64,000 bases of DNA from a virus. Taxonomy: Duplodnaviria > Caudoviricetes. The translations under genes and the position numbers were made by a program. Below, one piece after another: positions 3,920-48,252 of this stretch (positions within the stretch are counted from its first letter, which is position 1; each line of letters opens with the position of its first letter). The notes under the pieces were generated by a model that had not been told where the DNA came from, searched no databases, and was given only the letters and a program-made list of their open reading frames with translations. The DNA lies in IMG/VR virus record IMGVR_UViG_2884411467_000001, positions 1 to 64,000 of that record; one strand, written 5' to 3'.

Positions 3920-4300
3920 CTAGCTCCCGCTAGGATACGCAGGCATTGAAGGCAATGACGTCGAATTCCCGCCGGAAACAATAGCCCGTAGCGCGTCTCG
4001 GTAGGCCACCCAGTCTGCCGGGACCGATATTGCCTTCTCATAGCAGCGCAAGACCGTCAGATCAGACTCAGCCAACGCTTGGCGAGCCGCTGGCACCAAC
4101 GTAACCACCGCCGGAGGAGGCGCCACCGATATTGGATTTCCATTTGAATCGGCACCCACGGTGTATCCGAGAGCCTGCTTTTGGAGCATTTGGGTATAGA
4201 CGGCAGGGTCGACTTCAACGATGTCCGAAGGCATCTCGGCGACGGCATGAATCGCATCGTCGTAAAACCCATTCGTGCTCTTGCTGAAAAAGATAGTCAT
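3920..4300 (-). CDS. Tail fibre assembly/chaperone-like protein
   Basis: IFFSKSTNGFYDDAIH start and WVAYRDALRAI C-terminus; directly downstream of the fibre gene. Confidence 0.7.
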   Translation of the reverse strand: MTIFFSKSTNGFYDDAIHAVAEMPSDIVEVDPAVYTQMLQKQALGYTVGADSNGNPISVAPPPAVVTLVPAARQALAESDLTVLRCYEKAISVPADWVAYRDALRAIVSGGNSTSLPSMPAYPSGS

Positions 4301-4309: not shown

Positions 4310-5197
4310 TTAGTTACCAACGGCAAACCACGACAGATTCCATGCCTGGCCGACGGTGGCACTGTGCATGAACTGCGTGAAACCCGTCTTTGTCTGCGAT
4401 GACCACGATGAGCCATATGGGACAGCGCCAACGGCGTCCTGTGGAACCGCCACGATGGCCTGAATGCTATTCGGGAAGGCGATTGGGAAGGTGACTGCCG
4501 TTGACCCGTAATAGCCCGGGGAGGTGGCCGTACTGGTCGTTACCGACACGATGCCCCATTGCAGGATTTGGCCGTTAGGAAGCTTGCAGTATCCAGGTCC
4601 CATCCCTGTGCCCGAGGTGTTTGAGCCAGTGAACTGTCCAAGGTTCACAGCCTGGTTCGACTGTGAGCCGGCAGGTACCTGTAAGGCACCTCCAGTTTGC
4701 TCGGCCAGCACCCAGGAAGAGATCGTGGCATTCCAGATCACCTCGACTCGGCCATTCGCGATGATCTCGGCACCCTGCAAGGCCACGTGCGCAGCGCCGA
4801 CAATTGGCTTCGCGCCGAGCCCATTGAGGTTCAGTGTGGAGGCGCCGGTATTGGCAGTCTTCGCTTTGAACCAAAGAGACATGCCGTCGACCAGCGCGGT
4901 CGGCGCCGGTGTAAGAGCCACAGCGTAGGCATTGGCGGTACCGGTATCGGCCGCATAATTCATCTGCCCCGACTGGATCGCCAGGCCGAGCTGGTTGAAC
5001 AGGTTTTTGGTGGGCGTCAGGCCGGCGGCCTCGACGATATTGATCAGCTCCTGCTGGACAGCATTGAGCCATTCCGCGGGAACGATCGTGGCCGGCACAC
5101 CACCCGTGGGACTTCCGTCCGTGAAGAAACCAGGCGTACCCGCACCGGTACTCGCCGGCTGCGTCGCCGCAGCCGTGGAATTATCAATCTGATACAT
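4310..5197 (-). CDS. Short tail fibre protein
   Basis: Mu-type N-terminus (PATIVPAEWLNAVQQEL), ANTGASTLNLNGLG motif, gp53-like C-terminus (KLPNGQILQWG...TFPIAFPN). Confidence 0.8.
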   Translation of the reverse strand: MYQIDNSTAAATQPASTGAGTPGFFTDGSPTGGVPATIVPAEWLNAVQQELINIVEAAGLTPTKNLFNQLGLAIQSGQMNYAADTGTANAYAVALTPAPTALVDGMSLWFKAKTANTGASTLNLNGLGAKPIVGAAHVALQGAEIIANGRVEVIWNATISSWVLAEQTGGALQVPAGSQSNQAVNLGQFTGSNTSGTGMGPGYCKLPNGQILQWGIVSVTTSTATSPGYYGSTAVTFPIAFPNSIQAIVAVPQDAVGAVPYGSSWSSQTKTGFTQFMHSATVGQAWNLSWFAVGN

Positions 5198-9121: not shown

Positions 9122-9123
9122 GC

Positions 9124-33411: not shown

Positions 33412-33419
33412 GGGCCATG

Positions 33420-33448: not shown

Positions 33449-33497
33449 TGCTTTTGCGCAATCAACTGCGCAGACGCAATGTCCGAACATGGAGGGC

Positions 33498-34181
33498 ATG
33501 AGCTACCTCCAGCAGAACCTCAAATGGCTGTTTGAAACGAAGAAGACCAACGGCTACCAAGTGGCCCAGAAGACGGGCGTGGTCGCGAGCACGATCAATC
33601 GCATCGTGAATAGCAAGTTCAACGACGCGCGAGACAGCACGATTCGGCCAATCGCGGAACACTTCGGCCTTTCAGTCAATGACTTGAAGAATGTGGACCT
33701 GCAGGCCCAGGAGAAGCTTCTGGCCGTGGGTGAGGCCGTGGGTAAGCTGTCAGTGGACGCGTGCCTGATCACGGCGGTTCCCGAATTTTTCCCGGAGGAT
33801 GCTCCGCTCATGAACCTGCTGGCACCTCAGGACACGATCGCCCTATCGAAACCTGCGCTCGCGGCTATCACGACCGCCCCGCCATCTGATGTGCGTTTCG
33901 CGATTGCCCTGGACGATGCCATGCGCGGCGAGATTGAAAAAGGTGAGCTGGTTCTCATTGATACCCGTGTTCGGACCGTTACGGTCGACGGCATCTATGC
34001 TTTTACTTACTTCAAGCGACCGCACATTAAGCGAGGCGGTCACGAGGGAGCATCAGGTGGTTTGATGTTCACCGGAACCAATCCAAGGGTGAACAATATC
34101 CCCGTGGAGACCGAGGAAGAGATGAAAGGACTCAACATCATCGGCCAAGTCATTGCCTCCTTCACCAGGCGGCGTTACTGA
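33498..34181 (+). CDS. cI: CI-like repressor (HTH + S24-like domain, catalytic Ser replaced by Ala)
   Basis: GGAGG RBS; HTH NGYQVAQKTGVVASTINRIVN; S24-like DDAM...GELVLID...DGIYAF...IKR...IIGQVI. Confidence 0.85.
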   Translation: MSYLQQNLKWLFETKKTNGYQVAQKTGVVASTINRIVNSKFNDARDSTIRPIAEHFGLSVNDLKNVDLQAQEKLLAVGEAVGKLSVDACLITAVPEFFPEDAPLMNLLAPQDTIALSKPALAAITTAPPSDVRFAIALDDAMRGEIEKGELVLIDTRVRTVTVDGIYAFTYFKRPHIKRGGHEGASGGLMFTGTNPRVNNIPVETEEEMKGLNIIGQVIASFTRRRY

Positions 34182-34216
34182 GTCGATTGCCTGCGGCCTT
34201 CAGGGGGAGGGACAAG

Positions 34217-35875
34217 GTGGTATATCTAGCAAAGTGGGCCAGGAACTATTGGGTCCAAGGGACTGCCTTTGCCGTCCTGTATGGATTGACCTTCTACCAT
34301 TTGAAGGATGCCTCGCCAGCTACTCTTAACTTGCCTGTCGGCATGCGACTAGCGCTTTTCCTTGCCCTTCCACCGCGTTGGTGGCCTTGGCTTGTCGCCG
34401 GAGACATCGGAGCAAACGGGTACTGGAACATCACCGTTGCCGTGAAGCATCACTTTCCTGCCCTTTGGGCGGCGGTGGGTACGTCAATGCCGGTGCTCGC
34501 AGGCCTGATCCCTGCACACTTCAACAGGAAGTTTGGCGGCCCATACGATTTTGATAAGCCCCGCGACGCGATGCGCTTCCTTACCACCGCAGCCGGCAGC
34601 TCGCTCCTCACCGCGCTGGTATGCATCCTTGGCATTCTGGCCGCATCCATCGGCCGCCCCACGGGCATGACCTATGCCGACCCGGCCTTGGCGTCCCAGT
34701 TCACGATTTATCTCACTGGAGCATTAGCTTCCACTGTGCTCCTGCCGCCACTGGTGCATGTCGTTCGGGAGTTCTTTCCTAAAGGCAAGCGTGCTCTCAC
34801 GGACAAGGACCTGATCCTTATCGGCGGGTTTGCCGCCTATGTGCTGGTGGGAACGCTCTTCCTACAATCGGTCCCAATCGGCATGCTCACGCTTGTCCGA
34901 TGTGCTCTCTATGCGCCCCTGATCCTCATGACGCGCATCATGGGTTGGCGTGGCGCCACCATCATGGGGCTCGTTTGTGCAATAGCTCTTCAGGCGACGC
35001 AACGCGTTGACGTGGAAGGGCCATTTATCTCGGTGCAGGATATCGCCACTGCCTGCGCGGTCACCATGTTCATCTTCGGGTCCGTTATCTCCGAACAACG
35101 CAAGCAGGTGATAGCTGCCAAGGCGCAAAGCGAGCAGTCGCAGAGCGACGTGCGTCAGATGCGTGGCCTTGTTAAGCGCCACGCAACTCGTTCCGAAGCG
35201 CTCTTTCGGCACAGCGCGGGAATCATGGAAGATCTCGTGCGCGGCGCTCAGCAGGCGGAACGACAGATGCAGGACACGCCCGATCGTGGGGAGCGCGCCC
35301 TCATCCAGTGGGAGGCGATGAAGGGAATTCGCGAACGAATGCGCTCACTGAGTGAGATCTTCCATCCAGAATTGCTCGAGCAGGCAGGGCTCAGAGCAAC
35401 TATCTCGTCCGGGCCGCTGTACCAGATACTCAGCGCCTGCGGGATTGCGTTTGACGACGATCTACGTGCGCGTCCGGGCCTACTCTCGCAAGAAGTCCAA
35501 ATGTCGCTGTACCGCCTTTCTTACGAAGGGGCGTGCGTCATGCTTCGCGATAAGACACCGGAGAGGATGGTGGTGTCACTTCGGATCGGCAGAATTGCTA
35601 GGGGGCCGCGCTACGCGATCCTGCGCTTGAAAGGCGTTGTTTCGAGCCCTGAGGGATGGCGTGCCCCGACCAGTGTTGTGACCACAGGTTTCAGCCTGGA
35701 TGGTATGGGCTTGGTGGCGGAAAGCTTCCAGGGTCGCGTCAAATACAGCAGGGACGCGCACCGCATGACCATCCTCTTGTTCGACGGTGCAACTCAGGCG
35801 ATCACTGAGACCGTAAAGGCCCTACCGTTCTCAATGAACCAAGGCCACCCCTCGGTTACCGACGCCGCGGGCTAA
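34217..35875 (+). CDS. MASE1-domain membrane sensor with degenerate HisKA_3/HATPase-like tail
   Basis: GGGGAGG RBS, GTG start; LPVGMRLALFL.LPPRWWPWLVAGD and about 9 TMs; HPELLEQAGL and LYRLSYEG resemble UhpB-type kinase segments. Confidence 0.7.
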   Translation: MVYLAKWARNYWVQGTAFAVLYGLTFYHLKDASPATLNLPVGMRLALFLALPPRWWPWLVAGDIGANGYWNITVAVKHHFPALWAAVGTSMPVLAGLIPAHFNRKFGGPYDFDKPRDAMRFLTTAAGSSLLTALVCILGILAASIGRPTGMTYADPALASQFTIYLTGALASTVLLPPLVHVVREFFPKGKRALTDKDLILIGGFAAYVLVGTLFLQSVPIGMLTLVRCALYAPLILMTRIMGWRGATIMGLVCAIALQATQRVDVEGPFISVQDIATACAVTMFIFGSVISEQRKQVIAAKAQSEQSQSDVRQMRGLVKRHATRSEALFRHSAGIMEDLVRGAQQAERQMQDTPDRGERALIQWEAMKGIRERMRSLSEIFHPELLEQAGLRATISSGPLYQILSACGIAFDDDLRARPGLLSQEVQMSLYRLSYEGACVMLRDKTPERMVVSLRIGRIARGPRYAILRLKGVVSSPEGWRAPTSVVTTGFSLDGMGLVAESFQGRVKYSRDAHRMTILLFDGATQAITETVKALPFSMNQGHPSVTDAAG

Positions 35876-35888
35876 ACCCGCGGCGTCG
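35860..35888. terminator. 12-bp hairpin at the convergent gene junction
   Basis: CGACGCCGCGGG-CTAAA-CCCGCGGCGTCG; the MASE1 stop codon lies in the loop. Confidence 0.6.
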
Positions 35889-35897
35889 TGGGACGCT

Positions 35898-36356
35898 TTA
35901 ATTGATCTTCGTGCAGTCGGTGACACTGGTGCAGTCCGCCGCCGCGACAGGTCTCGCGCTGGGCGATGCCACAAGCCCTCTTGTTGGCGATGCAGTAACC
36001 GTGGTGCCGCTGTCTGAGTACACGGTCACGCCGTCAGCCGGTGCCGAATCAGTGACCGCCTGCAATTGACCGGCGCCCAGCGGCAGCGCGAGCGAACTCG
36101 TCCCATCAGGCGACGCCGCCACGCCGCCGCGCACAGTTCCGTTCACGTCGTTCACCTGGATGAATTTCAGGCCATTGACGGCGAACACGTAGACATGGAA
36201 CTGCGGATTCGCGCTTACGTCCTGGGCGTTTGGCCACGATTGGCCCAAGCCGCTGGCCGGCGCAGTCTGGGCTACTGCAACGCCCAAACCACCCATCAGC
36301 AAGCACAGCCCCATCGCCAAGGCCACAACGGCCCACTTTAATCTGCTCCGGTCCAT
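35898..36356 (-). CDS. Secreted protein of unknown function (GLGQSWPNAQDVS type)
   Basis: Sec signal peptide ending VAVA-Q; FHVYVF..NG..FIQVND.NG.VRG beta-rich core; C-terminal DCTSVTDCTKIN. Confidence 0.7.
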   Translation of the reverse strand: MDRSRLKWAVVALAMGLCLLMGGLGVAVAQTAPASGLGQSWPNAQDVSANPQFHVYVFAVNGLKFIQVNDVNGTVRGGVAASPDGTSSLALPLGAGQLQAVTDSAPADGVTVYSDSGTTVTASPTRGLVASPSARPVAAADCTSVTDCTKIN

Positions 36357-36474
36357 CCCCTGCTCTCCTTCAGTCTGTTGGCCTTTCGGCGATTCTTGCG
36401 CCGCCAACTCAAGCACTGAACCTGATCAAAAACATGAACGCCCACTGAATGCCGCGCACATTTCAGTGCGGATG

Positions 36475-36528
36475 TGTGCGTTTTCGCACGCACCCCTATT
36501 GCAAATAGTATGTGCGTTTACGCACAAT
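36475..36528 (+). promoter_or_regulatory. OL/pL-like operators and promoter
   Basis: TGTGCGTTTACGCACAA (36511-36527) identical to the OR site; variant TGTGCGTTTTCGCACG (36475-36490); TTGCAA at 36499. Confidence 0.7.
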
Positions 36529-36556
36529 TGATTGCACTTCACGAGGGGCCTATGCG

Positions 36557-36796
36557 ATGAGCGCCGTCTACCCAGCCGAACTATTCGTCCTGCGCCGTCA
36601 GGTCCGAAACGTCTCACTCGCTCCAGCCAGCGTCACCAGGACAGCCGAACGCATCGCCCTTCGCGCCCGCGCCATCGGCATCTCCACCTTCCGTGCCCGC
36701 GAGGGCGCCCTGAACTACCTAGCCTCCCTGTCGTATCTGGGCGGTATGTACGTCCTCGGCGCCAGCGGCACTGACAAGCCGAAGGGTACGGCATGA
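36557..36796 (+). CDS. Hypothetical, first gene of the pL operon
   Basis: GAGGGG RBS; ATGA-coupled to the next gene. Confidence 0.5.
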   Translation: MSAVYPAELFVLRRQVRNVSLAPASVTRTAERIALRARAIGISTFRAREGALNYLASLSYLGGMYVLGASGTDKPKGTA

Positions 36797-37059
36797 CCAC
36801 CGAGCCGAGTTTCCGCGCCCGGTGGGTCAATGAGGCGAGCTCCACCACCAAAATCCCGTCAGACGTCGCTCCCATCACCGTCCACGGATCAGGTGTTGAA
36901 GACGCGATCACCAAGATCTCAATCAACATCGGGTCCGCTTGCATAGGCATCGATGACGCAACGGCCGAGCTCATTGCCGAAGCACTCGTTTATGCAGTGA
37001 AAAAGCGGCGCGACGCGTTCGCCCAGAGAGCCGCGGCGCAGCGGGAGCAGTCCGCATGA
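36793..37059 (+). CDS. Hypothetical early protein
   Basis: Operonic coupling. Confidence 0.5.
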   Translation: MTTEPSFRARWVNEASSTTKIPSDVAPITVHGSGVEDAITKISINIGSACIGIDDATAELIAEALVYAVKKRRDAFAQRAAAQREQSA

Positions 37060-37247
37060 ATCCGATGCCCGCCCCGCTCACCGATGCAGAACTCGACGCG
37101 CTCGGCGCACTCGCAGGCCTGCGCATCAATCGCTGCATCGACGAAATCCTTTCCAGTTTGCCGGCCTCGCCGGGGACGTCCGCCCCCTCTCCCCCCTCCG
37201 GTGTTTCCGGCGGGGCTGGCACCTTCTCTTCGGAGGATCGCACGTGA
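37056..37247 (+). CDS. Hypothetical early protein
   Basis: Operonic coupling. Confidence 0.45.
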   Translation: MNPMPAPLTDAELDALGALAGLRINRCIDEILSSLPASPGTSAPSPPSGVSGGAGTFSSEDRT

Positions 37248-37492
37248 AGCGCATCGCTCTGCTTGCATTCGCTTGCCTGGCTCTCGCCGCCTGTACCGAT
37301 GAGGCCACCACGCGCGCCGCTCTCGACGCCGAGGGCTTCACGGACGTCCACATCACCGGATATGCGCCGTTCTCGTGCGCTGACAGTGACGACTATGCCA
37401 CCAGCTTTGTTGCGACCAACGCGAAAGGTAAGCGCGTCCAGGGTGTCGTCTGCAGCAGCTTGATGGGCAAGAACGCAACGGTGCGCTGGTGA
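37244..37492 (+). CDS. Phage lipoprotein
   Basis: Lipobox LAAC; GYAPFSC...YATSF.A.N.KG..V.GVVC motif. Confidence 0.75.
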   Translation: MKRIALLAFACLALAACTDEATTRAALDAEGFTDVHITGYAPFSCADSDDYATSFVATNAKGKRVQGVVCSSLMGKNATVRW

Positions 37493-37737
37493 TGGCCGTG
37501 GCCGCGCTCTTCTCGATCTTCCGCACTCGTCGCGGCGAATGGACGGGATGCACTCCGCCCTCAGCAGCTGAGCGCATGGCGCTCTACAGCCCGCGGCATG
37601 CCGCTGAGATCCAAGCGCGAGAGAACGCCGGCACTGCCGCACCTCGCTTCACCCTCCACAACGGTCGGCCTGTTCTGGTCGCCTTCCCCACTCGCCTCAA
37701 CCCCGTGCCCAAGGAGAAGACGAATGTTCGGACGTAA
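37489..37737 (+). CDS. Hypothetical early protein
   Basis: Operonic coupling. Confidence 0.4.
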   Translation: MMAVAALFSIFRTRRGEWTGCTPPSAAERMALYSPRHAAEIQARENAGTAAPRFTLHNGRPVLVAFPTRLNPVPKEKTNVRT

Positions 37738-38086
37738 GCACCAGCTTGCCATGGCCCTGCAGGCCCTTCGCTACTACGGCAACGAAGAGACCTATCGGCG
37801 TCGCGGACGGAAGGATGACTACCAGCCCGCGCCCTTCACCACCGACCACGGTAAGCGCGCTCGCGCTGCCTTGGAGGCGATCCGTGACGATCAGGCGCGT
37901 TCGGTCCTCTCGCGCGTGGGTGCCCTCTTTCGTCGCCGCCCTACGTCGCTCGGTGTGTTTGAGCCGCCCAGGGTCCCCAAGGCGCTGTCTTCCAGCGAAC
38001 GACGTGCGCGCAAGGCCTTTGAGCAGTCGCAGCGCGATGTGGCTGCACTCAATGCCCGTCGCGATCGCGAGGAAGCGGCTGCGTGA
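37724..38086 (+). CDS. Hypothetical early protein
   Basis: AAGGAG RBS before MFGRKH. Confidence 0.5.
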   Translation: MFGRKHQLAMALQALRYYGNEETYRRRGRKDDYQPAPFTTDHGKRARAALEAIRDDQARSVLSRVGALFRRRPTSLGVFEPPRVPKALSSSERRARKAFEQSQRDVAALNARRDREEAAA

Positions 38087-38280
38087 ACCGCACGCCCGAT
38101 CTCTTCGACGGGATCTTCGACAACCAGTCCACCGGTCGTCGTGAGGTCTGGCTCGATGGGAACGTGACACGACATGCGCGCCGCAATGCCGTCGGCGACG
38201 CGCAATCCAACTGGCGCGAGATGCGGGCTCCGTGGGGTTCCTACCCCGACCTCCCGGCAAACGCATCCGCGCCAATCTGA
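38083..38280 (+). CDS. Hypothetical early protein
   Basis: GTGA coupling; IFDNQSTGRREVWLDG. Confidence 0.5.
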   Translation: MNRTPDLFDGIFDNQSTGRREVWLDGNVTRHARRNAVGDAQSNWREMRAPWGSYPDLPANASAPI

Positions 38281-38424
38281 CGGGCAGCCGATGCCGGCGG
38301 CATATCCGGCGATCCGAACACTGAGGCGAAGAAACGGCTGCTCTGGGTTCCTGTGGTGACGACCCATGCATCGATCAGCGCCGGAGAACGTAACCGGCAA
38401 CTCACCAACCAACTGGAGCCAACC

Positions 38425-38616
38425 ATGGCGTTCAAGTTCCGAATGAAGGCGAAAGTGAAGATCAAGGTCAGCGGCGAGACCGGCACGATCATTGGCCGCG
38501 CCGATTACGAGGCAGCGGAGAACAACTACCGCGTGCGCTACGTCGCCAAGACCGGCACCGCCGCAGAGCGCTGGTGGACGGAGTCCGCACTGGTCGCAGC
38601 AACCACCTCGAAGTGA
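38425..38616 (+). CDS. Small SH3/KOW-like beta protein
   Basis: GGAG RBS; VKIKVSGETGTIIGRADY....NYRVRY....G...ERWW.E motif. Confidence 0.65.
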   Translation: MAFKFRMKAKVKIKVSGETGTIIGRADYEAAENNYRVRYVAKTGTAAERWWTESALVAATTSK

Positions 38617-38911
38617 TCTCCCCGCCCTGTGGAGTGACACAGGGCACATGAAGCGGGCCTGGCGTTCTTGGGCAACCACACCGGAATGGGTTCGGCGGGG
38701 TTTGAAGGTCCAGGCTCGCTTCATGTACTGGCAGTACGGCGCGCAGCGCGCGACGCAAAGTCCGTAGGTAATCAGACCTCGTATCCACTGAGCCGGTTCA
38801 AGCACGACGGCCAAGACCAAAAGGCACTCGGGGCCACGGCCGGACGATCCGGCTACTGCCACCTAACACATCACATCACATCACGTCGGCGTCGCCGGCA
38901 AGGGAATCGAA

Positions 38912-39475
38912 GTGACTGCACCGACGATTATCTTCCAGAAGGCCTTCATCAAAATCAACAAGGCCCCTGACATCAATGGCATTGCCAGCCTGCTGGAGCC
39001 GCTGACGCTGTCATCTATCACCAGCCAGGTGGATGGCTTTCTCAACCCAGATCCGAATCGCTTCGAGCTCGATGCATCCAGCGGAATCATCTACGACCCG
39101 CTCACTGGGTTGATGTGGGGTGACGAGACGGACGAGCTGACGCCGGACGAAGCTATGGAAGCATGCAAGGCATCGCGCCAGGGTGGCCATTCCGACTGGA
39201 CGAAAGCGGGCCTACGCCCGTGGCTCACCATTGTGGATTACACGCGCAACAACCCCGTGTTGCCACCGCCGTTCAAGACCCATGGCGACTCCGTTTGGAC
39301 GGCTGACGAAACTCCTTGGAGCAAGAAGGAGAAGCGTACGGGTTCTTCCCGCTCCTTCTTCTACGTCGGCATGTGCTACGGCAACGTCAACTACTACCTC
39401 GCCGGCTACCGGCGGCGTGCGCGGCCGGTGCGGCGCGCGGCGCCGGCCAGTCAGTGCTTGGTCATTGGCCAGTAA
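38912..39475 (+). CDS. DGR target protein, DUF1566 (Lcl / CLec-fold) domain
   Basis: IYDPLTGLMW...A...C.....GGHSDW...IVDY...VWT...; VR at the C-terminus; no signal peptide or TM. Confidence 0.85.
   Translation: MTAPTIIFQKAFIKINKAPDINGIASLLEPLTLSSITSQVDGFLNPDPNRFELDASSGIIYDPLTGLMWGDETDELTPDEAMEACKASRQGGHSDWTKAGLRPWLTIVDYTRNNPVLPPPFKTHGDSVWTADETPWSKKEKRTGSSRSFFYVGMCYGNVNYYLAGYRRRARPVRRAAPASQCLVIGQ
39339..39456 (+). repeat. DGR variable repeat (VR) with IMH-like GC-rich 3' end
   Basis: 118-nt match to 39974-40091 (offset 635) with 14 mismatches. Confidence 0.95.
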
Positions 39476-39484
39476 CAGCCTGAC

Positions 39485-39919
39485 ATGACCTTCCACCTTC
39501 CTCCCGCCGTGCGGCTCGCAGAAACCCTTGCTCGCGACATCGAGCAAGCGGTCTCGAAGTTTCACCGCGCGCACCGCTACACGTTCGGCGCTGATCTTCG
39601 CGCCGATATGTGGGCCGTGCTCACGACCGCGAACCGTGCGGCGAGGAAGCCTTCGGAGCGGGCCGCGTTGCTCACCAGGCTGGTTGATCAGGTGGATGAC
39701 CTCAAGCAGCGCCTGCGCCTCGGCCAGTCGCTGCGTCAGTTCAACAGCTTCGGTCAGTTCGAAGCGCTCATGCGCTCGGCGATAAACCTCGGCCAGCAGA
39801 TAGGCGGCTGGCACCGTCAGCACCACCCCAAAGGCCAGGATGGCCGGTCGCACGCGGCCGGACAGCGTGCCATGACACTGAGTACCCGTGACACCTCGAT
39901 GGTTGAGGTCAATCAATGA
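39485..39919 (+). CDS. avd: Accessory variability determinant (Avd-like four-helix bundle)
   Basis: F.RAHRY.FG.DLR...LGQQIGGW motif; lies between VR and TR. Confidence 0.85.
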   Translation: MTFHLPPAVRLAETLARDIEQAVSKFHRAHRYTFGADLRADMWAVLTTANRAARKPSERAALLTRLVDQVDDLKQRLRLGQSLRQFNSFGQFEALMRSAINLGQQIGGWHRQHHPKGQDGRSHAAGQRAMTLSTRDTSMVEVNQ

Positions 39920-41268
39920 CGAAGCTTCGCTACCCACAGGGATGTGCAGCCAGGTCGCAAGTGCACGGGGACGCGGGTTCTTCCCGCTCCTTCTTCTACG
40001 TCAACATGAACAACGGCAACGTCAACAACAACAACGCCAACAACCGGCTGCGTGCGCGGCCGGTGCGGCGCGCGGCGCCGGCCAGTGAGTGTCAGGGTGG
40101 GGTTACTGTTCGCCAATTGCACGATGCGATGTGCGCGGCTCGACGCCGGAAGAAACCCAGTGCGAACCAGCTCGCGTTCGAACTGGCCTGGATGGATCGC
40201 CTCATCGCCATTGAGGCGGACATCAATGCTGGCCGATGGTCTCCAGCACCCGCAACATGCTTCGTCGCAACGCGCCCGAAGGCCCGTGAGATCCATGCGC
40301 CTGATTTCGGCGACCGCGTGGTTCACCACTGGCTCGTGCCTCAGCTGGAAGCCATCTACGAGCCGACGTTCATCCACGACAGCTATGCCAATCGAAAGCG
40401 CAAAGGCTCTCACGCGGCCGTTCTTCGGCTCAGGCAGTTCGTTCGCCAGACCGTCAGCGGTGAAGGCGGCGGCTGGTACCTGCAGCTCGACGTGCATAAC
40501 TTTTTCAACAGCATCCACCGACCCACCCTGTGGCTGATGTTGAAGGACCGCCTCACGCGCGCCAACCTCGATGCTGCAGCTTTGCGCGTGGTTCATGCAC
40601 TCCTTCGTCATCCTGTTGAGCGCCAAGGCGTGCACCACCGAGCCACGGCCGCACAGCGCGCCATGGTTCCGGCTCACAAGCGGTTGGAGAATGCGGCGCC
40701 TGGATGCGGTTTACCAATCGGCAACCTCTCGTCTCAGTTCTTCGCCAATGTCTATCTAGACGCGCTCGATCAGTTCGTGAAGCACACGCTGAAGGCGAGG
40801 CGCTATGCCCGATATGTCGATGACTTCGTGCTAGTCCACCGTGATCGCGCCGTCCTGGAACAGTGGCAGCACGACATCGAGACTTTTCTTGGCCGGGAAC
40901 TGGGCCTGAAGCTGAAGGCTGACATTCGGCTACGCCCTCTGTCAGCCGGCATCGATTTCCTGGGTTATGTCGTCTATCCAACCCACACGCGAGTTCGGGC
41001 TCGTGTGCTCCAGCACATGACGCAGAACCTCGCTGCTTGGGCCCAAGCACACAGCGTGAGGCACGGGTTCGCTGCGACACCCGCCGATATCCGCTCTGCC
41101 GGTTCGATTCTCGCGAGCTTTGACGGCCATCTGCGCCACGCGAATGCGGCGCGTGTGCGGCTCCAAATCTTGAGCCGCTTTCCCTGGGCCAGTCGAATTC
41201 CGACGAAGGCCTCCTTTGCCCCAGCGCTAGAGGGAACGACCGTTCTCCTCCGGCATTCACACTCCTAA
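39916..41268 (+). CDS. DGR reverse transcriptase (ORF includes TR in frame)
   Basis: REIHAPDFGDRVVHH, YLQLDVHNFFNSI, GLPIGNLSSQFFANVYL, RYVDDFV and GIDFLGY motifs. Confidence 0.95.
   Translation: MTKLRYPQGCAARSQVHGDAGSSRSFFYVNMNNGNVNNNNANNRLRARPVRRAAPASECQGGVTVRQLHDAMCAARRRKKPSANQLAFELAWMDRLIAIEADINAGRWSPAPATCFVATRPKAREIHAPDFGDRVVHHWLVPQLEAIYEPTFIHDSYANRKRKGSHAAVLRLRQFVRQTVSGEGGGWYLQLDVHNFFNSIHRPTLWLMLKDRLTRANLDAAALRVVHALLRHPVERQGVHHRATAAQRAMVPAHKRLENAAPGCGLPIGNLSSQFFANVYLDALDQFVKHTLKARRYARYVDDFVLVHRDRAVLEQWQHDIETFLGRELGLKLKADIRLRPLSAGIDFLGYVVYPTHTRVRARVLQHMTQNLAAWAQAHSVRHGFAATPADIRSAGSILASFDGHLRHANAARVRLQILSRFPWASRIPTKASFAPALEGTTVLLRHSHS
39974..40091 (+). repeat. DGR template repeat (TR)
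   Basis: Ten AAC codons; 12 of the 14 differences from VR are at TR adenines. Confidence 0.95.
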
Positions 41269-41280
41269 GAGGATTTCTAA

Positions 41281-41673
41281 ATGGCTCAGGCCAAACGCAA
41301 GACCGCTCCGAAGCGCACCACCAGCCGTCCCCGCGCGCGTCGCACCGCCAGCAGCAAGATCAAGCTCCGCGCGATCAAGCCGGCTGATGAAGCCGTGCTC
41401 ATGAAGGAAGTCGAGGTCGAGTTCGAAAAGCTGTCGCCTTACGATTTCGCGCACAGCGAACTGCTGAAGACCCTGGATCTGCTCACCGATCTCTCCGCTG
41501 AGTTGGAGCGCCGCCTGACGCCGGTGCTGAAGCCGAGCGACCTGGTCAAGGGCGAGAAGCTCATCCGACAGGAGAACGTCGCTCCGGTCATCGAGGCCTT
41601 TCAGTCGGTCGAGGCCCGCGTGGACACGGTCGCCCAGCGCGTCCAGTACCTCCTCGCCCACCTCGCCATCTGA
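41281..41673 (+). CDS. Hypothetical protein, basic N-terminal tail plus coiled coil
   Basis: GAGG RBS right after the RT stop; K/R-rich first 30 aa. Confidence 0.65.
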   Translation: MAQAKRKTAPKRTTSRPRARRTASSKIKLRAIKPADEAVLMKEVEVEFEKLSPYDFAHSELLKTLDLLTDLSAELERRLTPVLKPSDLVKGEKLIRQENVAPVIEAFQSVEARVDTVAQRVQYLLAHLAI

Positions 41674-41686
41674 TCGGAACGCCTGC

Positions 41687-41881
41687 ATGCCTCGTTACGG
41701 TCGCAATGGTCGCTTCTTCCACTCGCTGAGCCCTCTGGCTCACAAGCTCGATGCGATCGCCATCTCCGCGCCGCACGTCAGTTCGGCACCCAAGGACCAT
41801 GACGAGGCCGTGGCCAAGCAACAGGCGAAGCTTGCGCGGCGTGCGGCGCGTGCTCGCATCGTTGAGGGTGGCCAGAAATGA
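41687..41881 (+). CDS. Hypothetical protein
   Basis: ATGA-coupled to the J-domain gene. Confidence 0.45.
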   Translation: MPRYGRNGRFFHSLSPLAHKLDAIAISAPHVSSAPKDHDEAVAKQQAKLARRAARARIVEGGQK

Positions 41882-42468
41882 TGATTGCCGCCTTCCCTCT
41901 CTCGTGGCCAAAGAATTTCGGCCGCTTCGCTGATCGCGAAAAGGGTTCGTTCCGCGCCACGCTCGCCGGTGCGCTGAAGAACGTCCAGGACAGTATTCGC
42001 CTGTTCGCCAAAGACAGCGAGGTCGAGCTGGCCGGCTTGGTCATCTCGTCGAACTGCACCCTTGGCGTAACCCGCCCCGCTGACCCTGGCGTCGCTGTGT
42101 GGTTCACGTGGGGAGGCATGCAGGTCTGCATCCCCGTCGACCGCTACGCGACCGTGGAAGCGAACCTGCAGGCAATCCACCACATCATTGAGGCGCGCCG
42201 TGTGGAACTACGCCACGGAACACTTGAGCTCGTGCGCGCGTCGTTCTCTGGCTTCCTCGCATTGCCGGCACCCGGCCCAGACGACGCGAACCACTGGAGC
42301 GCGGTGCTCGCTGTGGATCGTGGCGCCTCTACGTCCGAGATCCGCGCAGCTATGCAGATTGCGCGGCTGCGCGCCCACCCGGATAAGTCGACCGGATCAC
42401 CCGAAGCGTTCAAACGCGTCATGGAGGCCTGGCAGCAGGTCTGCATCGAGCACGGTATCCCCGAATGA
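41878..42468 (+). CDS. Phage J-domain (DnaJ-like) protein
   Basis: FPLSWP N-terminus, DPGVAVWF...CIPVDRY..VE.NL, C-terminal HPD motif (AHPDK). Confidence 0.85.
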   Translation: MMIAAFPLSWPKNFGRFADREKGSFRATLAGALKNVQDSIRLFAKDSEVELAGLVISSNCTLGVTRPADPGVAVWFTWGGMQVCIPVDRYATVEANLQAIHHIIEARRVELRHGTLELVRASFSGFLALPAPGPDDANHWSAVLAVDRGASTSEIRAAMQIARLRAHPDKSTGSPEAFKRVMEAWQQVCIEHGIPE

Positions 42469-42707
42469 CCGACATCCTCTTCCTATGTCGACGGGCACGC
42501 GCCAGCACGCGCTGTGGCGCCAGCCTCGACGCAGCCCTACGCCACGCGCGCCAGGCGCAGCTGGAAGGCACTGAGGCAGGCCTGCGCCCGCAGGACAGCG
42601 CCGCCATTGATCGCGCGCTCCGTGACTTGGAGTTCGCCCTCAAGAGCACCGAGACCCACCGCCAGCGCCTTCTGCGCAAGGCTGATCGAAAGGAGCAGAA
42701 CCAATGA
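42465..42707 (+). CDS. Hypothetical protein
   Basis: ATGA coupling on both sides. Confidence 0.5.
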   Translation: MTDILFLCRRARASTRCGASLDAALRHARQAQLEGTEAGLRPQDSAAIDRALRDLEFALKSTETHRQRLLRKADRKEQNQ

Positions 42708-43231
42708 ACATCGACGTCCGCGATGAAGTGATCGAGCGTGCGTGCCAAGCCTACTTCGTCGGCAATGTGCGCAAGCCCTGGCCGTGGCGCGACACGCAAG
42801 CCCTGGACGAACCGGACGCTGTGTTCGCGGCGATGCGCCTCGCGCTCGTTGCAGCCCTGGAGAAACTTGCCGGTACCGGCGTTGGACTCATCCTGGCGGA
42901 GCGCCAGCGGCAGATCACTGCCGAAGGCTATACGCCGGAGCGCGATGCCAAGACCTACGCTCAGGTGCCGGATGGCCACTATGCCGCCGAGTTGCCCTGC
43001 GCAGCCGCGGCGTATGCCTGCTTCGCAGGCATGATCGCCGACTTCCGCGATCTACAGCGAACTCAGGAACGCCCCGAACACCAGCCGCCGTCATGCTGGC
43101 CCTGGAGTGCTACCTCGTGGAAGCCTGGCGCAGACAACTCGAACGCGTCGCGCATCCGTGAACTGGAGAAGGCCGGCGCGTTGATCGCAGCTGAGATCGA
43201 TCGCCTCCTCTCTGCCAGTGAGGGCGCCTGA
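42704..43231 (+). CDS. Conserved-type phage hypothetical protein
   Basis: ERQRQITAEGYTPE.D...AAAAYA...WPW....WKP...REL.KAGALI.AEIDRL motif. Confidence 0.7.
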   Translation: MNIDVRDEVIERACQAYFVGNVRKPWPWRDTQALDEPDAVFAAMRLALVAALEKLAGTGVGLILAERQRQITAEGYTPERDAKTYAQVPDGHYAAELPCAAAAYACFAGMIADFRDLQRTQERPEHQPPSCWPWSATSWKPGADNSNASRIRELEKAGALIAAEIDRLLSASEGA

Positions 43232-43232
43232 C

Positions 43233-43337
43233 ATGAAGTGGTTCATGAACCCCGACAACAACCCGACCATCCTGGTGATCGCGCTGGTTATTGCAGCCCT
43301 GTGTGTCTTTGCCAGCTTCGGAGCTGCCAATGGCTGA
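43233..43337 (+). CDS. 34-aa membrane peptide (not in the ORF track)
   Basis: MKWFMNPDNKPTILVIALVIAALCVFASFGAANG; overlaps the MTase start. Confidence 0.4.
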   Translation: MKWFMNPDNNPTILVIALVIAALCVFASFGAANG

Positions 43338-45201
43338 CGGATCACATCAGGACGGCTTCAACTTCCCACGCCGGAAGTTTGCCTCTGCCCTTCGCCCGGG
43401 CGAAATCGTCGTCGATTTCTTCGCCGGTGGTGGCGGCGCCAGCGAGGCCTTGCGCCAGGCGCTTGGTCGTGACCCGGACGTTGCGGTCAACCACGATCAT
43501 CTGGCGATCAGCATGCATGCGGCCAACCATCCGTTTACGCGGCACATGGAGGCCGACGCCTGGACGGTCGATATCCTTCGGGAGGTCAATGGTCGCAAAA
43601 CCGGCTGGTTCCATTCGAGCCCCGACTGCACGCACTTCAGCCAGGCCAAGGGCGGCCAGCCGCGCGATCGCCAAGTGCGAAGCCTCGCCTGGGTGATCGT
43701 CAAGGTCGCCGGCATCCTCAACAAGCGCGGGCTCGCACCGCGCATCATCAGCCTGGAGAACGTCAAACAGATGCTGCTCTGGTCGCAGCTGGTCGCGAAG
43801 CGCGACAAAGCGACTGGGCGCGTCGTCAGGCTCGACGGGTCTATAGCTGCACCCGGTGAGCGCGTACCGCTGCGCGAGCAGTTCCTCGTGCCTGACAAGA
43901 AGCGCGCTGGCAGCATCTGGCGCCAGTTCGTCGGCGCGCTGCGTGCGCTCGGCTATGTCGTCGAGCATCGACTTCTGAAGGCCTGCGACTATGGCGCCGG
44001 CACGAGCCGCGAGCGTCTCTTCCTGATCGCGCGGCGCGACGGTGAGGCCATTCGCTGGCCAGAACCGACGCACGGGCCCGGTCGTGCCAAGCCCTACGTC
44101 ACCGCAGCGGACTGCATCGACTGGTCCATTGAGTGTCCGTCGATCTTCCAGCGGAAGAAGCCGCTCGCCGATGCGACTTGCCGGCGCATCGCCAAGGGCA
44201 TCCAGCGCTACGTCATCACCGCTGCCGAGCCCTTCATCGTCCAGTGTGCCAACGCCTCAGCCAACGGCGTTGCATCATCCGACGACCCGCTTGGCGTCAT
44301 CACAGCATGGCCGAAGGGCGGCTCGCATGCAGTCATTGCTCCGACACTTGTGCAGGCCGCGCATGGTGACGGCAAGCCACGCGGCGTGCAGCGCTGGGGT
44401 TCCGGGCACAGGCATGTCGAGAGTCAGCTTGGTGCGATTACAGCAAGCGGCGGCCATGCCGTCGCAGCGGCCCATCTGATCAAATTCCGCGGCGACAGCG
44501 ATGGCGGCCCGGTGACCACGTCCATGCCGACCATCACGAGCGGCGCCGGGGCTGCCAGGCCTGCCGGCGCAGCCCACGCCATGGGCATCATCACTACGTT
44601 CCTCGAACAGGCCAACGGTGGTGGCGAGAATGGCAACCCTGCCCGGGCACGCGGAGCTACCGAACCCGTCAGCTCGATCACCGGTACCGGCAGCCAGCAG
44701 CGCATTGTGACCGGTCATCTGACCGCCTTCGGTCAGAACGCCAAGGGAACGAGCGCGGGCGAACCGCTGCAGACGGCATTGGGTGGCGCCACGCGATTCG
44801 GAGTCGTTGAGTGCACGCTGAGCCCGGAGCACGAGGCCGGTGCGCTGCGTGTTGCCGCCTTCCTCATCCGCTACTACGGCGAGGGCGGCCAGCACGGAAG
44901 CCTGCGCAATCCCGCGGCAACCATGACCACGAAGGAGAGGCTCGCGCTGGTCACCGTGACGATCCAGGGCACGCCCTACGTGATCGTGGACATCGGTCTA
45001 CGCATGCTGCGCCGTGAAGAACTATTCCGCGCGCAGGGCTTCCCGGCTGACTACATTATCGATCGCACAGCCGACGGCAGGAAGTTAAGCATCAGCGCCA
45101 GCGTGCGCATGGTCGGTAACAGCGTGAGCCCGCCTCCGCTTGCCGCGCTTGCTCGCGCAAACCTCGAACTGAACGTCAAGAACTTCAGGGAGGCGGCGTG
45201 A
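43330..45201 (+). CDS. DNA cytosine-5 methyltransferase (orphan)
   Basis: DFFAGGGG (motif I), SPDCTHFS (IV), ENV (VI), RERLF (VIII), QGFP...GNSV (IX/X). Confidence 0.9.
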   Translation: MADGSHQDGFNFPRRKFASALRPGEIVVDFFAGGGGASEALRQALGRDPDVAVNHDHLAISMHAANHPFTRHMEADAWTVDILREVNGRKTGWFHSSPDCTHFSQAKGGQPRDRQVRSLAWVIVKVAGILNKRGLAPRIISLENVKQMLLWSQLVAKRDKATGRVVRLDGSIAAPGERVPLREQFLVPDKKRAGSIWRQFVGALRALGYVVEHRLLKACDYGAGTSRERLFLIARRDGEAIRWPEPTHGPGRAKPYVTAADCIDWSIECPSIFQRKKPLADATCRRIAKGIQRYVITAAEPFIVQCANASANGVASSDDPLGVITAWPKGGSHAVIAPTLVQAAHGDGKPRGVQRWGSGHRHVESQLGAITASGGHAVAAAHLIKFRGDSDGGPVTTSMPTITSGAGAARPAGAAHAMGIITTFLEQANGGGENGNPARARGATEPVSSITGTGSQQRIVTGHLTAFGQNAKGTSAGEPLQTALGGATRFGVVECTLSPEHEAGALRVAAFLIRYYGEGGQHGSLRNPAATMTTKERLALVTVTIQGTPYVIVDIGLRMLRREELFRAQGFPADYIIDRTADGRKLSISASVRMVGNSVSPPPLAALARANLELNVKNFREAA

Positions 45202-45203
45202 TG

Positions 45204-45860
45204 TCACTGCGGCTTGTTTGGAGGCCTAGCGACCGGGAGGAAGGGCTTCATGTTCTTCATTTGCCGCGGGTTGATCTTCTTATCGAAGTACTGAGTCGCA
45301 GCATTGAACTCAATGGCGCAAGCCGCAAGAAAGTCCTTCACTTCGGCGATCTTCTCCGCGACAAATTCGTCCCGAGGGTCATTAACAAGCGTCGCGAGTG
45401 CGCCAGTCTGCGCCTCGACGGCCGGGAGGGCATGGATACAGGTCGGAAGGTTGATCGTGAGATGCCGTGGCAGGTCAACAAATGCATCAGCTGGGAGGCT
45501 CTCCAGAGGGCTACGGAACTTAGGCCCATTGCGCCGAAACCAGACCGCATGGCCGCCGTCACGCAGGAACTCCCCTTTCATGCACCCGAGGCGAAGATCA
45601 GCCTCCACGAACAGGGCTTTCAGCCGGCTCAGTTCCGGCAACGCCATGGCCAGAACAACATCACCTCGCCCCCGACTCGCGCTCCTCCTCCTAACAGCGT
45701 CCGACAACGCGATGCCAAGAGCCACTACGGCCGCGGCGAATGCGCCTATGCCGGCGAACCAAGTCCCTTGCTCGACAGCGTTGAGGCCAAGCCACCAACG
45801 AACTGTCGGAGCCGAATGAGCCAGCGCTTCGACCCCTGCACACAGCGAATCCATTGCCAT
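45204..45860 (-). CDS. Antisense moron, single-TM hypothetical protein
   Basis: TM GTWFAGIGAFAAAVVALGIAL followed by a basic helix; GGAG RBS. Confidence 0.6.
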   Translation of the reverse strand: MAMDSLCAGVEALAHSAPTVRWWLGLNAVEQGTWFAGIGAFAAAVVALGIALSDAVRRRSASRGRGDVVLAMALPELSRLKALFVEADLRLGCMKGEFLRDGGHAVWFRRNGPKFRSPLESLPADAFVDLPRHLTINLPTCIHALPAVEAQTGALATLVNDPRDEFVAEKIAEVKDFLAACAIEFNAATQYFDKKINPRQMKNMKPFLPVARPPNKPQ

Positions 45861-45930
45861 GCGTGAAATCTCCATCCTGTTGAATGGCCGCATCGTACGC
45901 CTTCCGCTGCTTCAGGGAGGCGGCGGGACG

Positions 45931-46885: not shown

Positions 46886-47091
46886 TGCTCCGACACGTGA
46901 CCATCAGCAAGTTTGCCAAGGAATCGGGCTACACCGAGAACGCCATCCGCATGAAGATCAAGAACGGCGTATGGTTGGAAGGTGTCGTCTGGATGAGGTC
47001 ACCCGATGGAAGGGTGTTAATCGACACAGAGGGATATGAGACATGGGTAGCCGGTCAGCAGGTGTCCGCGCTGCAACGCAGCGCAGCGTAG
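46885..47091 (+). CDS. xis: Excisionase
   Basis: VTISKFAKESGYTENAIR.KI..GVW.EG motif directly upstream of int. Confidence 0.8.
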   Translation: MLRHVTISKFAKESGYTENAIRMKIKNGVWLEGVVWMRSPDGRVLIDTEGYETWVAGQQVSALQRSAA

Positions 47092-48209
47092 AGATCGATT
47101 TTTATTACCGCGGTGCCAGGTGTCGCGAACGTCTCAAGCTGCCGCCGACTGCCGCCAACCTGAAGTTCGCGGCCAACTTGAAGGCCCAGATCGAGGCTGA
47201 GATCGCTCGGGGCGCTTTCGATTACGCGAGGTTCTTCCCCGACAGCAAGCGCGCCAGGACGCTCAGCAAGCTCCCAGGCGCAGCGCTGACCATCGAGAAG
47301 GGACTGGAGACTTGGCTCAAGGGGATGAAGAGCCAGATCGAGCACACGACCTACCGCGACTATGACCTTGCCATCCAGCGAGTATGGGTTCCGGCGTTCG
47401 GCGCCAAGCGGCTGACAGAGCTGACGCGCGGCGAGCTGAAAGAATGGGTGTCAGAACAGACCTGCGGGCTGAAGCGCATCCGCAACCTGCTGCTCCCCAT
47501 GCGCGGCATGTTCGCCCAAGCGGTGGAGGATGAGCAGATCACGGCCAATCCGTTCGTCGGCTGGACACCGCGAAAGATCGAGCCGCCCAAAGAGTCGGAC
47601 GATGTCGACCCGTTTACGCCGGCCGAGGTGGCGGCAATCCTGGAAGCCAGTGAGGGCCAGGTCCGCAACCTGTTTGAGTTCGGATTCTGGACCGGCCTGC
47701 GCACCAGCGAGCTGATCGCCCTGCGCTGGGAAGATGTCGACCTGGTCAATGGAATGGTCAGCGTGCGGCGGGCAAAGGTGCGCAAGAAGGTCAAGGCGCC
47801 CAAGACCAAGGCGGGACGGAGGACGGTTCAACTCCTGGTTCCGGCATTGAACGCCATTCAGGCGCAGCGCGCGCATTCTCAGCTCCGCGGCGAAGAGGTG
47901 TTCCTGAATCCGCGCACTGGCGAGCCATGGCTTCATGACGGGCCAATCCGCAAAACGGCATGGCACCCAGCCCTCAAACGCGCGGGCGTGCGATACCGAT
48001 ACCCCTACCAGATGCGCCACACCTTTGCCTCGACGCTGCTCAGCGCTGGCGAGAATCCCGTCTGGGTGGCGACCATGATGGGGCACAAGGATTGGGCCAT
48101 GATCATCAAGGTCTATGGACGGTGGATTCCTTCGATCGCTCCTGACGCCGGACAGAAGGTGGCGGCACTTTGGTCAACATCTGGTCAGCCCACCGCCGCT
48201 AAGCGTTGA
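47043..48209 (+). CDS. int: Tyrosine integrase (Arm/DUF3596-type N-terminus)
   Basis: IDFYYRGARCRE, TGLRTSELIAL.W, YQMRHTFAS, MMGH and YG motifs. Confidence 0.9.
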   Translation: MGSRSAGVRAATQRSVEIDFYYRGARCRERLKLPPTAANLKFAANLKAQIEAEIARGAFDYARFFPDSKRARTLSKLPGAALTIEKGLETWLKGMKSQIEHTTYRDYDLAIQRVWVPAFGAKRLTELTRGELKEWVSEQTCGLKRIRNLLLPMRGMFAQAVEDEQITANPFVGWTPRKIEPPKESDDVDPFTPAEVAAILEASEGQVRNLFEFGFWTGLRTSELIALRWEDVDLVNGMVSVRRAKVRKKVKAPKTKAGRRTVQLLVPALNAIQAQRAHSQLRGEEVFLNPRTGEPWLHDGPIRKTAWHPALKRAGVRYRYPYQMRHTFASTLLSAGENPVWVATMMGHKDWAMIIKVYGRWIPSIAPDAGQKVAALWSTSGQPTAAKR

Positions 48210-48222
48210 AAATGCTCAAAGA

Positions 48223-48252
48223 ACGCGGGTTCGACTCCCGCCACCTCCACCA
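48223..48252 (+). ncRNA. ssrA: tmRNA 3'-end fragment (att core)
   Basis: ACGCGGG-TTCGACT-CCCGC T arm followed by CACCTCC-ACCA (G3-U70-compatible acceptor, A discriminator); no 5' part upstream. Confidence 0.8.

Follow-up and report, generated by a model that had tools for sequence, protein, structure and literature searches.

A canonical DGR with a small DUF1566-type target lies in the early operon of a temperate myovirus

A canonical DGR occupies positions 38912–41268 of the window, the 64,000-nt stretch of a caudoviricete virus record (IMG/VR IMGVR_UViG_2884411467_000001) that was analysed here, and comprises a target gene, avd, TR and an RT gene, all co-oriented and intact. To our knowledge, DGRs are the only natural machines for targeted protein hypermutation known in prokaryotes and their viruses, and tropism switching through a tail fibre is the one function that has been shown experimentally for those of phages. 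The original prediction, made from the letters of the window alone, placed a complete cassette here, and this was borne out by the repeats and genes described below. Its reading of the parts recognized all four components, but missed both the placement of TR, which falls within the 5′ part of the RT ORF, and the presence of two targets in related loci.

The target gene (38912..39475, plus strand) encodes a 187-aa soluble protein, and repeat comparison with TR (39974..40091, plus strand) placed VR in its C-terminal part (39339..39456, plus strand). The two 118-nt copies are 88% identical and form the sole direct repeat within the 5.5 kb searched around the cassette (37500–43000). TR is in frame with the RT, its reading frame is free of stops and its 24 adenines are kept in AAC-type codons (10 AAC codons). 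Differences between VR and TR were concentrated at these adenines (12 of the 14 mismatches; 24 A in 118 nt; hypergeometric P = 2.3e-8), and all 12 adenine-site differences fall in codon positions 1–2. The mutable core of VR (39362..39409, plus strand; residues 151–166) contains the 12 codons whose TR counterparts have an adenine as first or second base, interspersed with the invariant residues V152, G157, V159 and A164. Across 57 aligned family members, entropy was 1.8–3.1 bits at these 12 codons, against 0–0.55 bits at the interleaved and 5′-flanking scaffold codons without a TR adenine (residues 144–164): the family is diversified exactly at TR-adenine codons, and the scaffold between them is near-invariant.

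VR ends in an IMH-like segment (39415..39456, plus strand), in which a 37-nt adenine-free, G+C-rich stretch is identical to TR 40050–40086; the first base that tells the two copies apart is C39452 in VR versus G40087 in TR. This G-site difference was found again in related loci and, by analogy with BPP-1 (PMC5758913), the 3′ end would serve as the IMH. A blastn search of VR against the whole 81,097-b record (E<=10) returned VR and TR only, so there is no second VR, in the tail-fibre gene or elsewhere, in agreement with what had been claimed for the window. One further VR change, T to G at a non-adenine site, is unique to the window; a role as a conserved hairpin-forming feature was ruled out because related VRs retain the T.

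Downstream of VR, avd (39485..39919, plus strand; 144 aa) matched phrog_3206 (‘Avd protein of DGR’, E 4.5e-13), while its scores against NCBIfam DivGenRetAVD (NF033474; 35 bits) and Pfam bAvd (21.5 bits) were under the curated cut-offs of 80 and 40, respectively. Its position and size fit a DGR accessory protein, and its identity to Avd from the compared relatives is 76–95%. The ATG of the RT ORF (39916..41268, plus strand; RVT_1, E 1.9e-13) overlaps the avd stop (ATGA), and the RT domain begins at ~40117, 3′ of TR in the same ORF. Motifs SYANRKRKGSH, LPIGNLSSQ, YVDD and FLGY are intact in the translation; YxDD and [I/L]GxxxSQ are marks of DGR-type RTs. Model searches gave generic RT matches only, and so did the PADLOC defence models, in which the target, Avd and seven neighbour proteins had no match; NCBIfam likewise held nothing for the target or its neighbours.

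The prophage is a tmRNA-integrated myovirus with lambdoid regulation, and the cassette lies in its leftward early operon under CI control, the early-left position proposed in the original prediction. The immunity region is defined by a cI-type repressor gene (33498..34181, plus strand; HTH and S24-like domain, weak Pfam matches), and an OL-type operator pair (36475..36530, plus strand) flanks the presumed leftward early promoter, with a 16-nt palindrome at 36511, identical to that at 33425 upstream of cI, and a variant at 36475. A consensus promoter scan of 33000–48400 gave no site, so this promoter was placed from the operators only; intrinsic terminators in the same interval were at chance level, not commoner than in shuffled sequence. 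Plus-strand genes then follow, overlapping or closely packed, up to the integrase (47043..48209, plus strand), the final gene of the same-strand array. It runs into a tmRNA 3′-end fragment (48155..48252, plus strand; E 1.1e-7) that marks the attachment site and was the sole Rfam match in 36000–48500, with no family in the cassette. A 295-nt non-coding gap lies 5′ of the target gene and, together with a terminator that the annotation of phage Magia places before its own DGR cassette, makes separate regulation of the cassette possible. The tail fibre (4310..5197, minus strand; tail-fibre PHROGs), beside a tail-fibre assembly protein (3920..4300), lies outside the DGR and served as a negative control without VR; it is 33.7 kb from the cassette and on the opposite strand, matching the separation of over 33 kb noted previously. 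From this layout, the cassette would be transcribed early. The host would be a member of the Rhodanobacteraceae.

Pfam assigned the target to Lcl_C/DUF1566 (PF07603) above the gathering score, with a match at residues 58–174 (38.3 bits versus a cut-off of 34.9) that covers the model over its full length (positions 1–117 of 117). An AF2 model from a 58-sequence alignment had a pLDDT of 85.7 (25 sequences gave an unusable model, pLDDT 48), in which residues ~50–178 form a C-type-lectin-like DUF1566/Lcl_C domain; the VR domain is thus modelled as a CLec fold with VR at its C-terminus. Residues 1–49 (pLDDT 60–70) had no match to a known fold. The top structural match was the Legionella Lcl C-terminal domain (8q4e_A, Z 12.3), with further matches to the Bd2740 fibre tip (Z 10.5) and the DGR protein TvpA (2y3c, Z 7.7), and Foldseek returned CTLDs and phage DUF1566 proteins. 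The protein has no PHROG match, a family-profile search of solved structures gave no meaningful match, and tblastn against 50,697 phage records found nothing at E<=1e-3. Longer fused forms of residues 1–135 (the non-VR part) were not found, which is weak evidence.

The nearest solved folds (Lcl, the Bd2740 fibre tip and invasin) are extracellular adhesins, which weighs against the reading favoured below. One alternative is that the target leaves the cytoplasm despite having no classical signal, through lysis release or other export, and binds cell-surface structures. Receptors might be masked on debris or neighbour cells, for instance, or rival phages excluded; an early-expressed receptor-masking protein has a phage precedent in T5 Llp. 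DUF1566/CLec relatives of known function also bind surface or extracellular ligands (Lcl; LdtA, PMC5758913). Against this, none of the 58 family members has a signal peptide, TM segment, lipobox, Tat motif or hydrophobic 19-residue window (KD >=1.6), which extends to these 58 proteins the lack of a signal peptide and TM segment that had been claimed for the window protein. The family alignment also holds no conserved cysteine pair for disulfides, and the locus no hint of an export partner. We regard an extracellular role as improbable, in this general form as in the examples given.

Eight related Rhodanobacteraceae-type loci, from uncultured viruses or prophages, were compared. In all of them a cassette of targets, Avd, TR and RT occupies the integrase-proximal side of the early genes, and VR/TR differences are adenine-specific. 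RTs of related loci are 65–86% identical to that of the window. Relatives carry two tandem targets against one in the window, where the single target is a chimera that joins a type-1 body to a type-2 tail and probably arose by deletion between VR1 and VR2. Loss of one ancestral target, and the T-to-G change that relatives lack, would suit a cassette that has recently become a fossil, with VR frozen and homing lost, whatever the former role of the target. Decay does happen in this target family, since Dyella 2RAB6 and the complete phage G003 carry orphan homologues without a DGR. Yet all ORFs of the window cassette are intact, as are RT motifs including YVDD and IGNLSSQ, TR keeps its adenines and lacks stops, VR and TR agree at every base of the 37-nt IMH-like stretch, and the chimeric target retains the avd-proximal flank of the type-2 VR; a recent fossil is thus an unlikely description of this locus.

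The same layout recurs in cultured phages. We inspected six: Magia (MT701587; Burkholderia cenocepacia), Burkholderia vB_E192a, Pseudomonas Cruim01, phPA-G and LPPA56, and Shewanella vB_Sb_QDWS. Like the window, they have small CLec/DUF1566-like targets with Avd, TR and RT in the leftward early operon, on that side of the early genes which faces the integrase, and adenine-specific VR/TR differences. In Magia and phPA-G a repressor gene again lies upstream of the cassette, and several of the six have a phrog_874 homologue and methyltransferases downstream. They differ in carrying two or three targets (120–220 aa) rather than one chimera, and in an Avd of 118 aa rather than 144. Their targets are only remotely like that of the window (hhalign probability 44–75%), and homology to those of Magia and Cruim01 was weakly detectable by profile. 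RT identity to Magia, Cruim01 and other cultured phages was 38–41%. With the eight related loci, these phages answer in the affirmative whether homologous DGRs sit in early operons: the same arrangement is kept in phages of two virion types and at least four host genera. Phage DGR RTs that are more distant (<=34% identity: phiWae15, F2, BalMu-1 and ANMV-1) adjoin tail or capsid genes, so that the contrast with early-operon cassettes is real. In the RT tree, two well-supported early-operon groups were recovered, with long-branched tail-linked outgroups attaching between them; for this reason the tree does not settle a single origin of early-operon placement, which is neither shown nor excluded.

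The paradigm phage system, that of Bordetella phage BPP-1 (mtd-avd-TR-brt), was compared through its description (PMC5758913) and general background. BPP-1 has its four components in the same order as the window. It also resembles the window DGR in a CLec-fold target with VR at the C-terminus, in mutagenesis of adenines within AAC codons and in a 3′ boundary that is IMH-like and rich in G+C. Its target Mtd, a 381-aa trimer at the tip of the tail fibre, determines tropism and its gene sits among those of the tail, whereas the window target is a 187-aa protein of the DUF1566 class in the early operon, without tail linkage. Alternatively, the target might be an accessory part of the virion, with a receptor-binding or adaptor role despite a gene outside the tail module, and would then switch tropism as in BPP-1. 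Characterized phage DGR targets are all receptor-binding proteins (PMC5758913, PMC8144416) and the target fold is that of adhesin tips (Lcl, Bd2740). A missing signal peptide is compatible with assembly in the cytoplasm, as virion proteins lack one too, and the N-terminal 49 residues, to which no fold was assigned, could dock on a fibre. Genome context speaks against a virion protein. In every relative examined the gene belongs to the early-left operon and is encoded on the other strand from all structural genes, and no family member sits in a tail module. In G003 the homologue is flanked by the lysis genes and terS, on the opposite strand and outside the tail genes. Searches of G003 and of the Dyella 2RAB6 genome, both with a target homologue, found no homologue of the sheath or terminase of this phage, which points to a different structural module. 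One cassette type occurs in both myoviruses and siphoviruses, and so is independent of virion type: it is carried by the myophage Magia (PMC7883833), the siphovirus Cruim01 (PMC11256456) and the Detrevirus phPA-G. Magia targets, at 120–154 aa, extend barely beyond a lectin domain, leaving scant space for a virion-docking domain. On balance, a virion-associated target is possible but rather doubtful.

With no export signal in the family and no member in a tail module, the reading that we favour, at a probability of roughly 0.6, is that the target is a non-virion, early-expressed soluble binding protein. Anatomy, adenine-specific history, fold and conserved operon position are established here; expression timing, non-virion location, ligand class and current activity of the DGR are inferred. 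Transcription of the early-left operon, once the prophage is induced or a cell infected, would yield the target, Avd, TR RNA and RT together. RT–Avd would copy TR RNA to cDNA with misincorporation opposite adenines, and the cDNA would replace VR as far as the G+C-rich IMH-like end. Twelve codons would thereby be recoded, giving ~1e13 possible proteins that differ on one beta-hairpin face of the C-type-lectin-like domain. The product would be a 21-kDa soluble protein without export signals and with a variable ligand, perhaps a host or rival-phage component; the intracellular action and the anti-defence or regulatory roles put forward in the original prediction are likewise conjectural.

Several published systems bear on this reading. 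The window DGR belongs to the DUF1566/CLec2 target class, and short DUF1566-only targets are a catalogued class that makes up about half of category d (CLec2 VR) targets (Wu et al. 2018, PMC5758913). A DUF1566-type VR domain is also found in LdtA of the Legionella pneumophila DGR (category d; PMC5758913), which comes from a cellular element and is a lipoprotein at the surface, whereas the window protein is phage-borne and has neither lipobox nor signal peptide. Second, non-structural DGR targets near counter-defence genes were described in Quimbyvirus (Benler et al. 2021, PMC8008677), and non-structural targets also occur in gut Bacteroidota prophages (Nature 2025, PMC12629997); both studies propose a role in phage–host conflict. 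These phages and the window share a CLec target away from structural genes, near methyltransferases and counter-defence genes. There, however, tail genes adjoin the cassette and its primary target, and the VR in the non-structural protein belongs to a remote second target, whereas in the window the cassette and its only target lie in the early operon, with no structural target. The novelty attached to this locus in the original prediction was overstated: besides these reports of DUF1566-only and non-structural targets, the layout itself had been published with the genome of Magia (Microbiol Resour Announc 2021, PMC7883833). The window adds no new principle, and an early-operon DGR is not unusual.

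A broader and much more tentative proposal, which we think would probably not hold in full, is that early-operon DGRs of temperate proteobacterial phages give the phage an adaptive set of binders, with which it counters host defence or excludes rivals instead of altering adsorption. Each burst would release progeny with new variants of one or two cytoplasmic lectin-fold proteins, and the next host would select those that neutralize a variable host immunity protein or a protein of a rival phage. What recurs across these genomes is a group of phage DGRs that has no structural target and diversifies only small soluble proteins of the early operon, which suggests that phages put hypermutation to a second use. 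The cultured carriers Magia, Cruim01, LPPA56 and phPA-G make the question of the ligand directly testable at the bench.

The source record, an 81,097-b IMG/VR provirus (61.6% G+C) of which the window covers bases 1–64,000, carries a structurally complete diversity-generating retroelement (DGR). As the original prediction held, its four parts lie together in the early-left array (38912–41268): the target gene (38912–39475; 187 aa; Pfam Lcl_C/DUF1566, above gathering score) with its variable repeat (VR; 39339–39456, 118 nt), avd (39485–39919; phrog_3206), the template repeat (TR; 39974–40091, 118 nt) and a reverse transcriptase (RT) open reading frame (39916–41268; RVT_1) in which SYANRKRKGSH, LPIGNLSSQ, YVDD and FLGY are all intact. 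The predicted lack of a second VR was also borne out, as the repeat has no further copy in the whole 81,097-b record.

VR and TR are 88% identical over 118 nt and reveal an adenine-specific history, with 12 of 14 differences at TR adenines (P = 2.3 × 10⁻⁸), all 12 at codon positions 1–2. The mutable core of TR (ten AAC codons, one TAC and one ATG) allows about 10¹³ protein variants. An adenine-free, G+C-rich stretch of 37 nt, the same in VR and TR, is directly followed by a G/C difference (39452/40087) seen again in related loci; this 3′ end fits the IMH/IMH* boundary defined for BPP-1 (PMC5758913). The DGR is presumably still active; that this copy is already frozen, which we judge separately from function, seems quite unlikely. 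One non-adenine change, T-to-G at 39414 (TR 40049; Leu to Arg), is found in the window's VR only and is probably a simple point change, because related VRs retain T. It extends a G+C-rich hairpin (VR end, −30.2 kcal/mol, z −3.6, versus z 0.0 for the TR end). The RT frame, which in TR is the frame of VR in the target, is open from the avd stop straight through TR, and avd stop and RT start overlap as ATGA in five of six loci (the window and related loci L005, L007, L009, L010 and L011). Translation of TR as an N-terminal RT extension (39916–40116 region) is therefore possible, unless RT starts at TTG 40117 or ATG 40129.

The minus strand forms a lambdoid rightward arm, passing from replication (O-like initiator, 31412–32236) and antitermination (Q-like antiterminator, 27790–28467) to genes for large terminase, portal, major head protein, tail sheath, tape measure, baseplate, tail fibre (4310–5197) and tail-fibre assembly (3920–4300). 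On the plus strand, the immunity region encodes a cI-type repressor (33498–34181) and a MASE1 membrane protein, followed by an operator pair (36475–36530) and tightly packed or overlapping genes that finish with a tyrosine integrase (47043–48209), abutted by a tmRNA 3′-end fragment (48155–48252), the attachment site; the tmRNA 3′ end is where the prophage has integrated. Because one and the same 16-nt operator palindrome occurs at 36511 and, upstream of cI, at 33425, this array is the counterpart of lambda's pL operon. We infer an early promoter here, and the target would be expressed early under CI control; intrinsic terminators were not enriched in the array region. Directly 5′ of the target, 295 nt (38617–38911) contain no convincing ORF and could hold a separate promoter; the length of this gap is not conserved (32–235 nt in relatives). 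A second integrase (48455–49717) straight after the tmRNA fragment suggests that another island has inserted there in tandem. The trio of cI, MASE1 protein and convergent small protein (33498–36416) is kept in several related prophages (L005:2397–5181; L006:3767–6692; L022:2078–4978).

Close target homologues (50–70% identity) occur in Rhodanobacter and Dyella genomes and in soil or tailings metagenomes. An intact cassette is present in eight related loci (L005, L007, L009, L010 (the same as L012, a Rhodanobacter sp. B04 prophage), L011, L020, L021 and L022), each time with a tandem pair of DUF1566 targets, then avd, TR and RT, and always 3′ of the immunity region and 5′ of methyltransferases, a DUF4224 protein and integrase; their VR1 and VR2 depart from TR almost only at adenines. 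In the Dyella prophage L022, a gene matching Pfam PF21825 (‘Sequestin’; 8816–9187) sits just 5′ of the two targets. RTs 38–41% identical to the window's occur in temperate phages that have been cultured (Burkholderia Magia, vB_E192a and vB_PL1; Pseudomonas Cruim01, phPA-G, LPPA56 and SC_8_H2H8_2017; Shewanella vB_Sb_QDWS). vB_Sb_QDWS and ‘Hujiaoplasma phage zrk29-1’ (OK094664.1 and OP650936.1; both 47,902 b, with the same RT matches) appear to be a single genome submitted twice, with hosts that differ greatly. Six of these cultured phages were inspected (Magia, vB_E192a, Cruim01, phPA-G, LPPA56 and vB_Sb_QDWS), and all have two or three small targets (120–220 aa), Avd, TR and RT in the early arm, with adenine-specific VR/TR differences; the cassette lies ahead of integrase or, in phPA-G, after the CI repressor in a stretch that ends before any integrase. 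The proposed survey of homologous DGRs thus placed all eight related loci and all six inspected phages in the early arm. The inspected phages include a myophage (Magia; PMC7883833), a siphovirus (Cruim01; PMC11256456) and a Detrevirus (phPA-G). The RTs of phiWae15, Bacteroides F2, BalMu-1 and ANMV-1 (≤34% identical) lie beside tail or capsid genes, with large targets. An RT tree recovered two well-supported early-operon groups but, because these tail-linked outgroups are long-branched, cannot decide whether they form one clade. The DGR type itself is already known: short DUF1566-only targets are a catalogued class (PMC5758913), the Magia announcement remarked on short targets (PMC7883833), and two reports describe non-structural phage targets near counter-defence genes (PMC8008677, PMC12629997).

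Two tandem targets are kept in 8/8 related loci, versus one in the window. The C-terminus reads PASQ in type-1 targets and PASQCLVIGQ in type-2 targets; the window's target joins a type-1 body to a type-2 end. Its DNA is VR1-type upstream of VR, including a common 6-nt insertion, and matches the avd-proximal VR2 flank downstream; its VR and TR are spaced by 635 nt, just as VR2 and TR are in L007. Judged against related loci (L007:10001–11142; L011:5100–6248), the simplest account is that the single target likely arose by a deletion of ~590 nt, with loss of the type-2 body, through VR1/VR2 recombination.

An AlphaFold2 model of the soluble target from a 58-sequence alignment (pLDDT 85.7 overall, >90 over roughly residues 50–170) shows a CLec fold. 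Exhaustive comparison with solved structures, with Foldseek in agreement, matched it best to the Legionella Lcl C-terminal domain (8q4e_A; Z 12.3, 116 residues aligned), then to the Bdellovibrio Bd2740 C-terminal domain (Z 10.5), dozens of C-type-lectin-like domains (Z 8–9) and the Treponema DGR protein TvpA (Z 7.7); nothing matched residues 1–49, which are low-confidence helices. A β-hairpin carries the twelve adenine-templated codons (residues 151–166), interspersed with invariant V152, G157, V159 and A164. Across 57 family members, entropy is 1.8–3.1 bits at these codons and 0–0.55 bits at scaffold codons without a TR adenine (interleaved and 5′-flanking, residues 144–164), indicating many independent rounds of diversification within the family, precisely at these codons. 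The DUF1566 profile matches 26,550 cluster representatives, including giant proteins of 3,600–5,700 aa with 10–17 domain copies (P0046–P0050). This adhesin-type family is thus very large, and the small phage proteins represent it in a minimal form. TM-like segments, lipoboxes and Tat motifs are absent from every member of the target family, and its alignment has no conserved cysteine pair; action outside the cell after release is very unlikely.

Sheath and terminase of the window are shared by the Rhodanobacter sp. B04 prophage, at 72% and 79% identity, respectively. Dyella sp. 2RAB6 (L006/L008, 10001–11131) has a target orthologue (57% identity) at the same operon position, and its genome lacks homologues of that sheath and terminase, any match to sheath family phrog_165, and RT and TR. 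A complete 42.7-kb DTR phage with another terminase and head set has no RT; its target homologue (IMGVR_UViG_3300005437_000006, 9824–10432) occupies a moron-like site, flanked by the lysis cassette and terS and encoded on the opposite strand. The last two targets are DGR-less orphans. The target family was thus never found in a tail module and travels with different virion types, and the early-arm position of the cassette is conserved independently of tail type. That the target is a virion-associated accessory receptor-binding protein is possible but unlikely. A specific anti-defence role, put forward earlier for other phages (PMC8008677, PMC12629997), is likewise possible but unlikely, its basis being the neighbouring methyltransferases of the window and its relatives. 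We infer both the ligand class and a location outside the virion, and favour (probability roughly 0.6) a non-virion, early-expressed binding protein.
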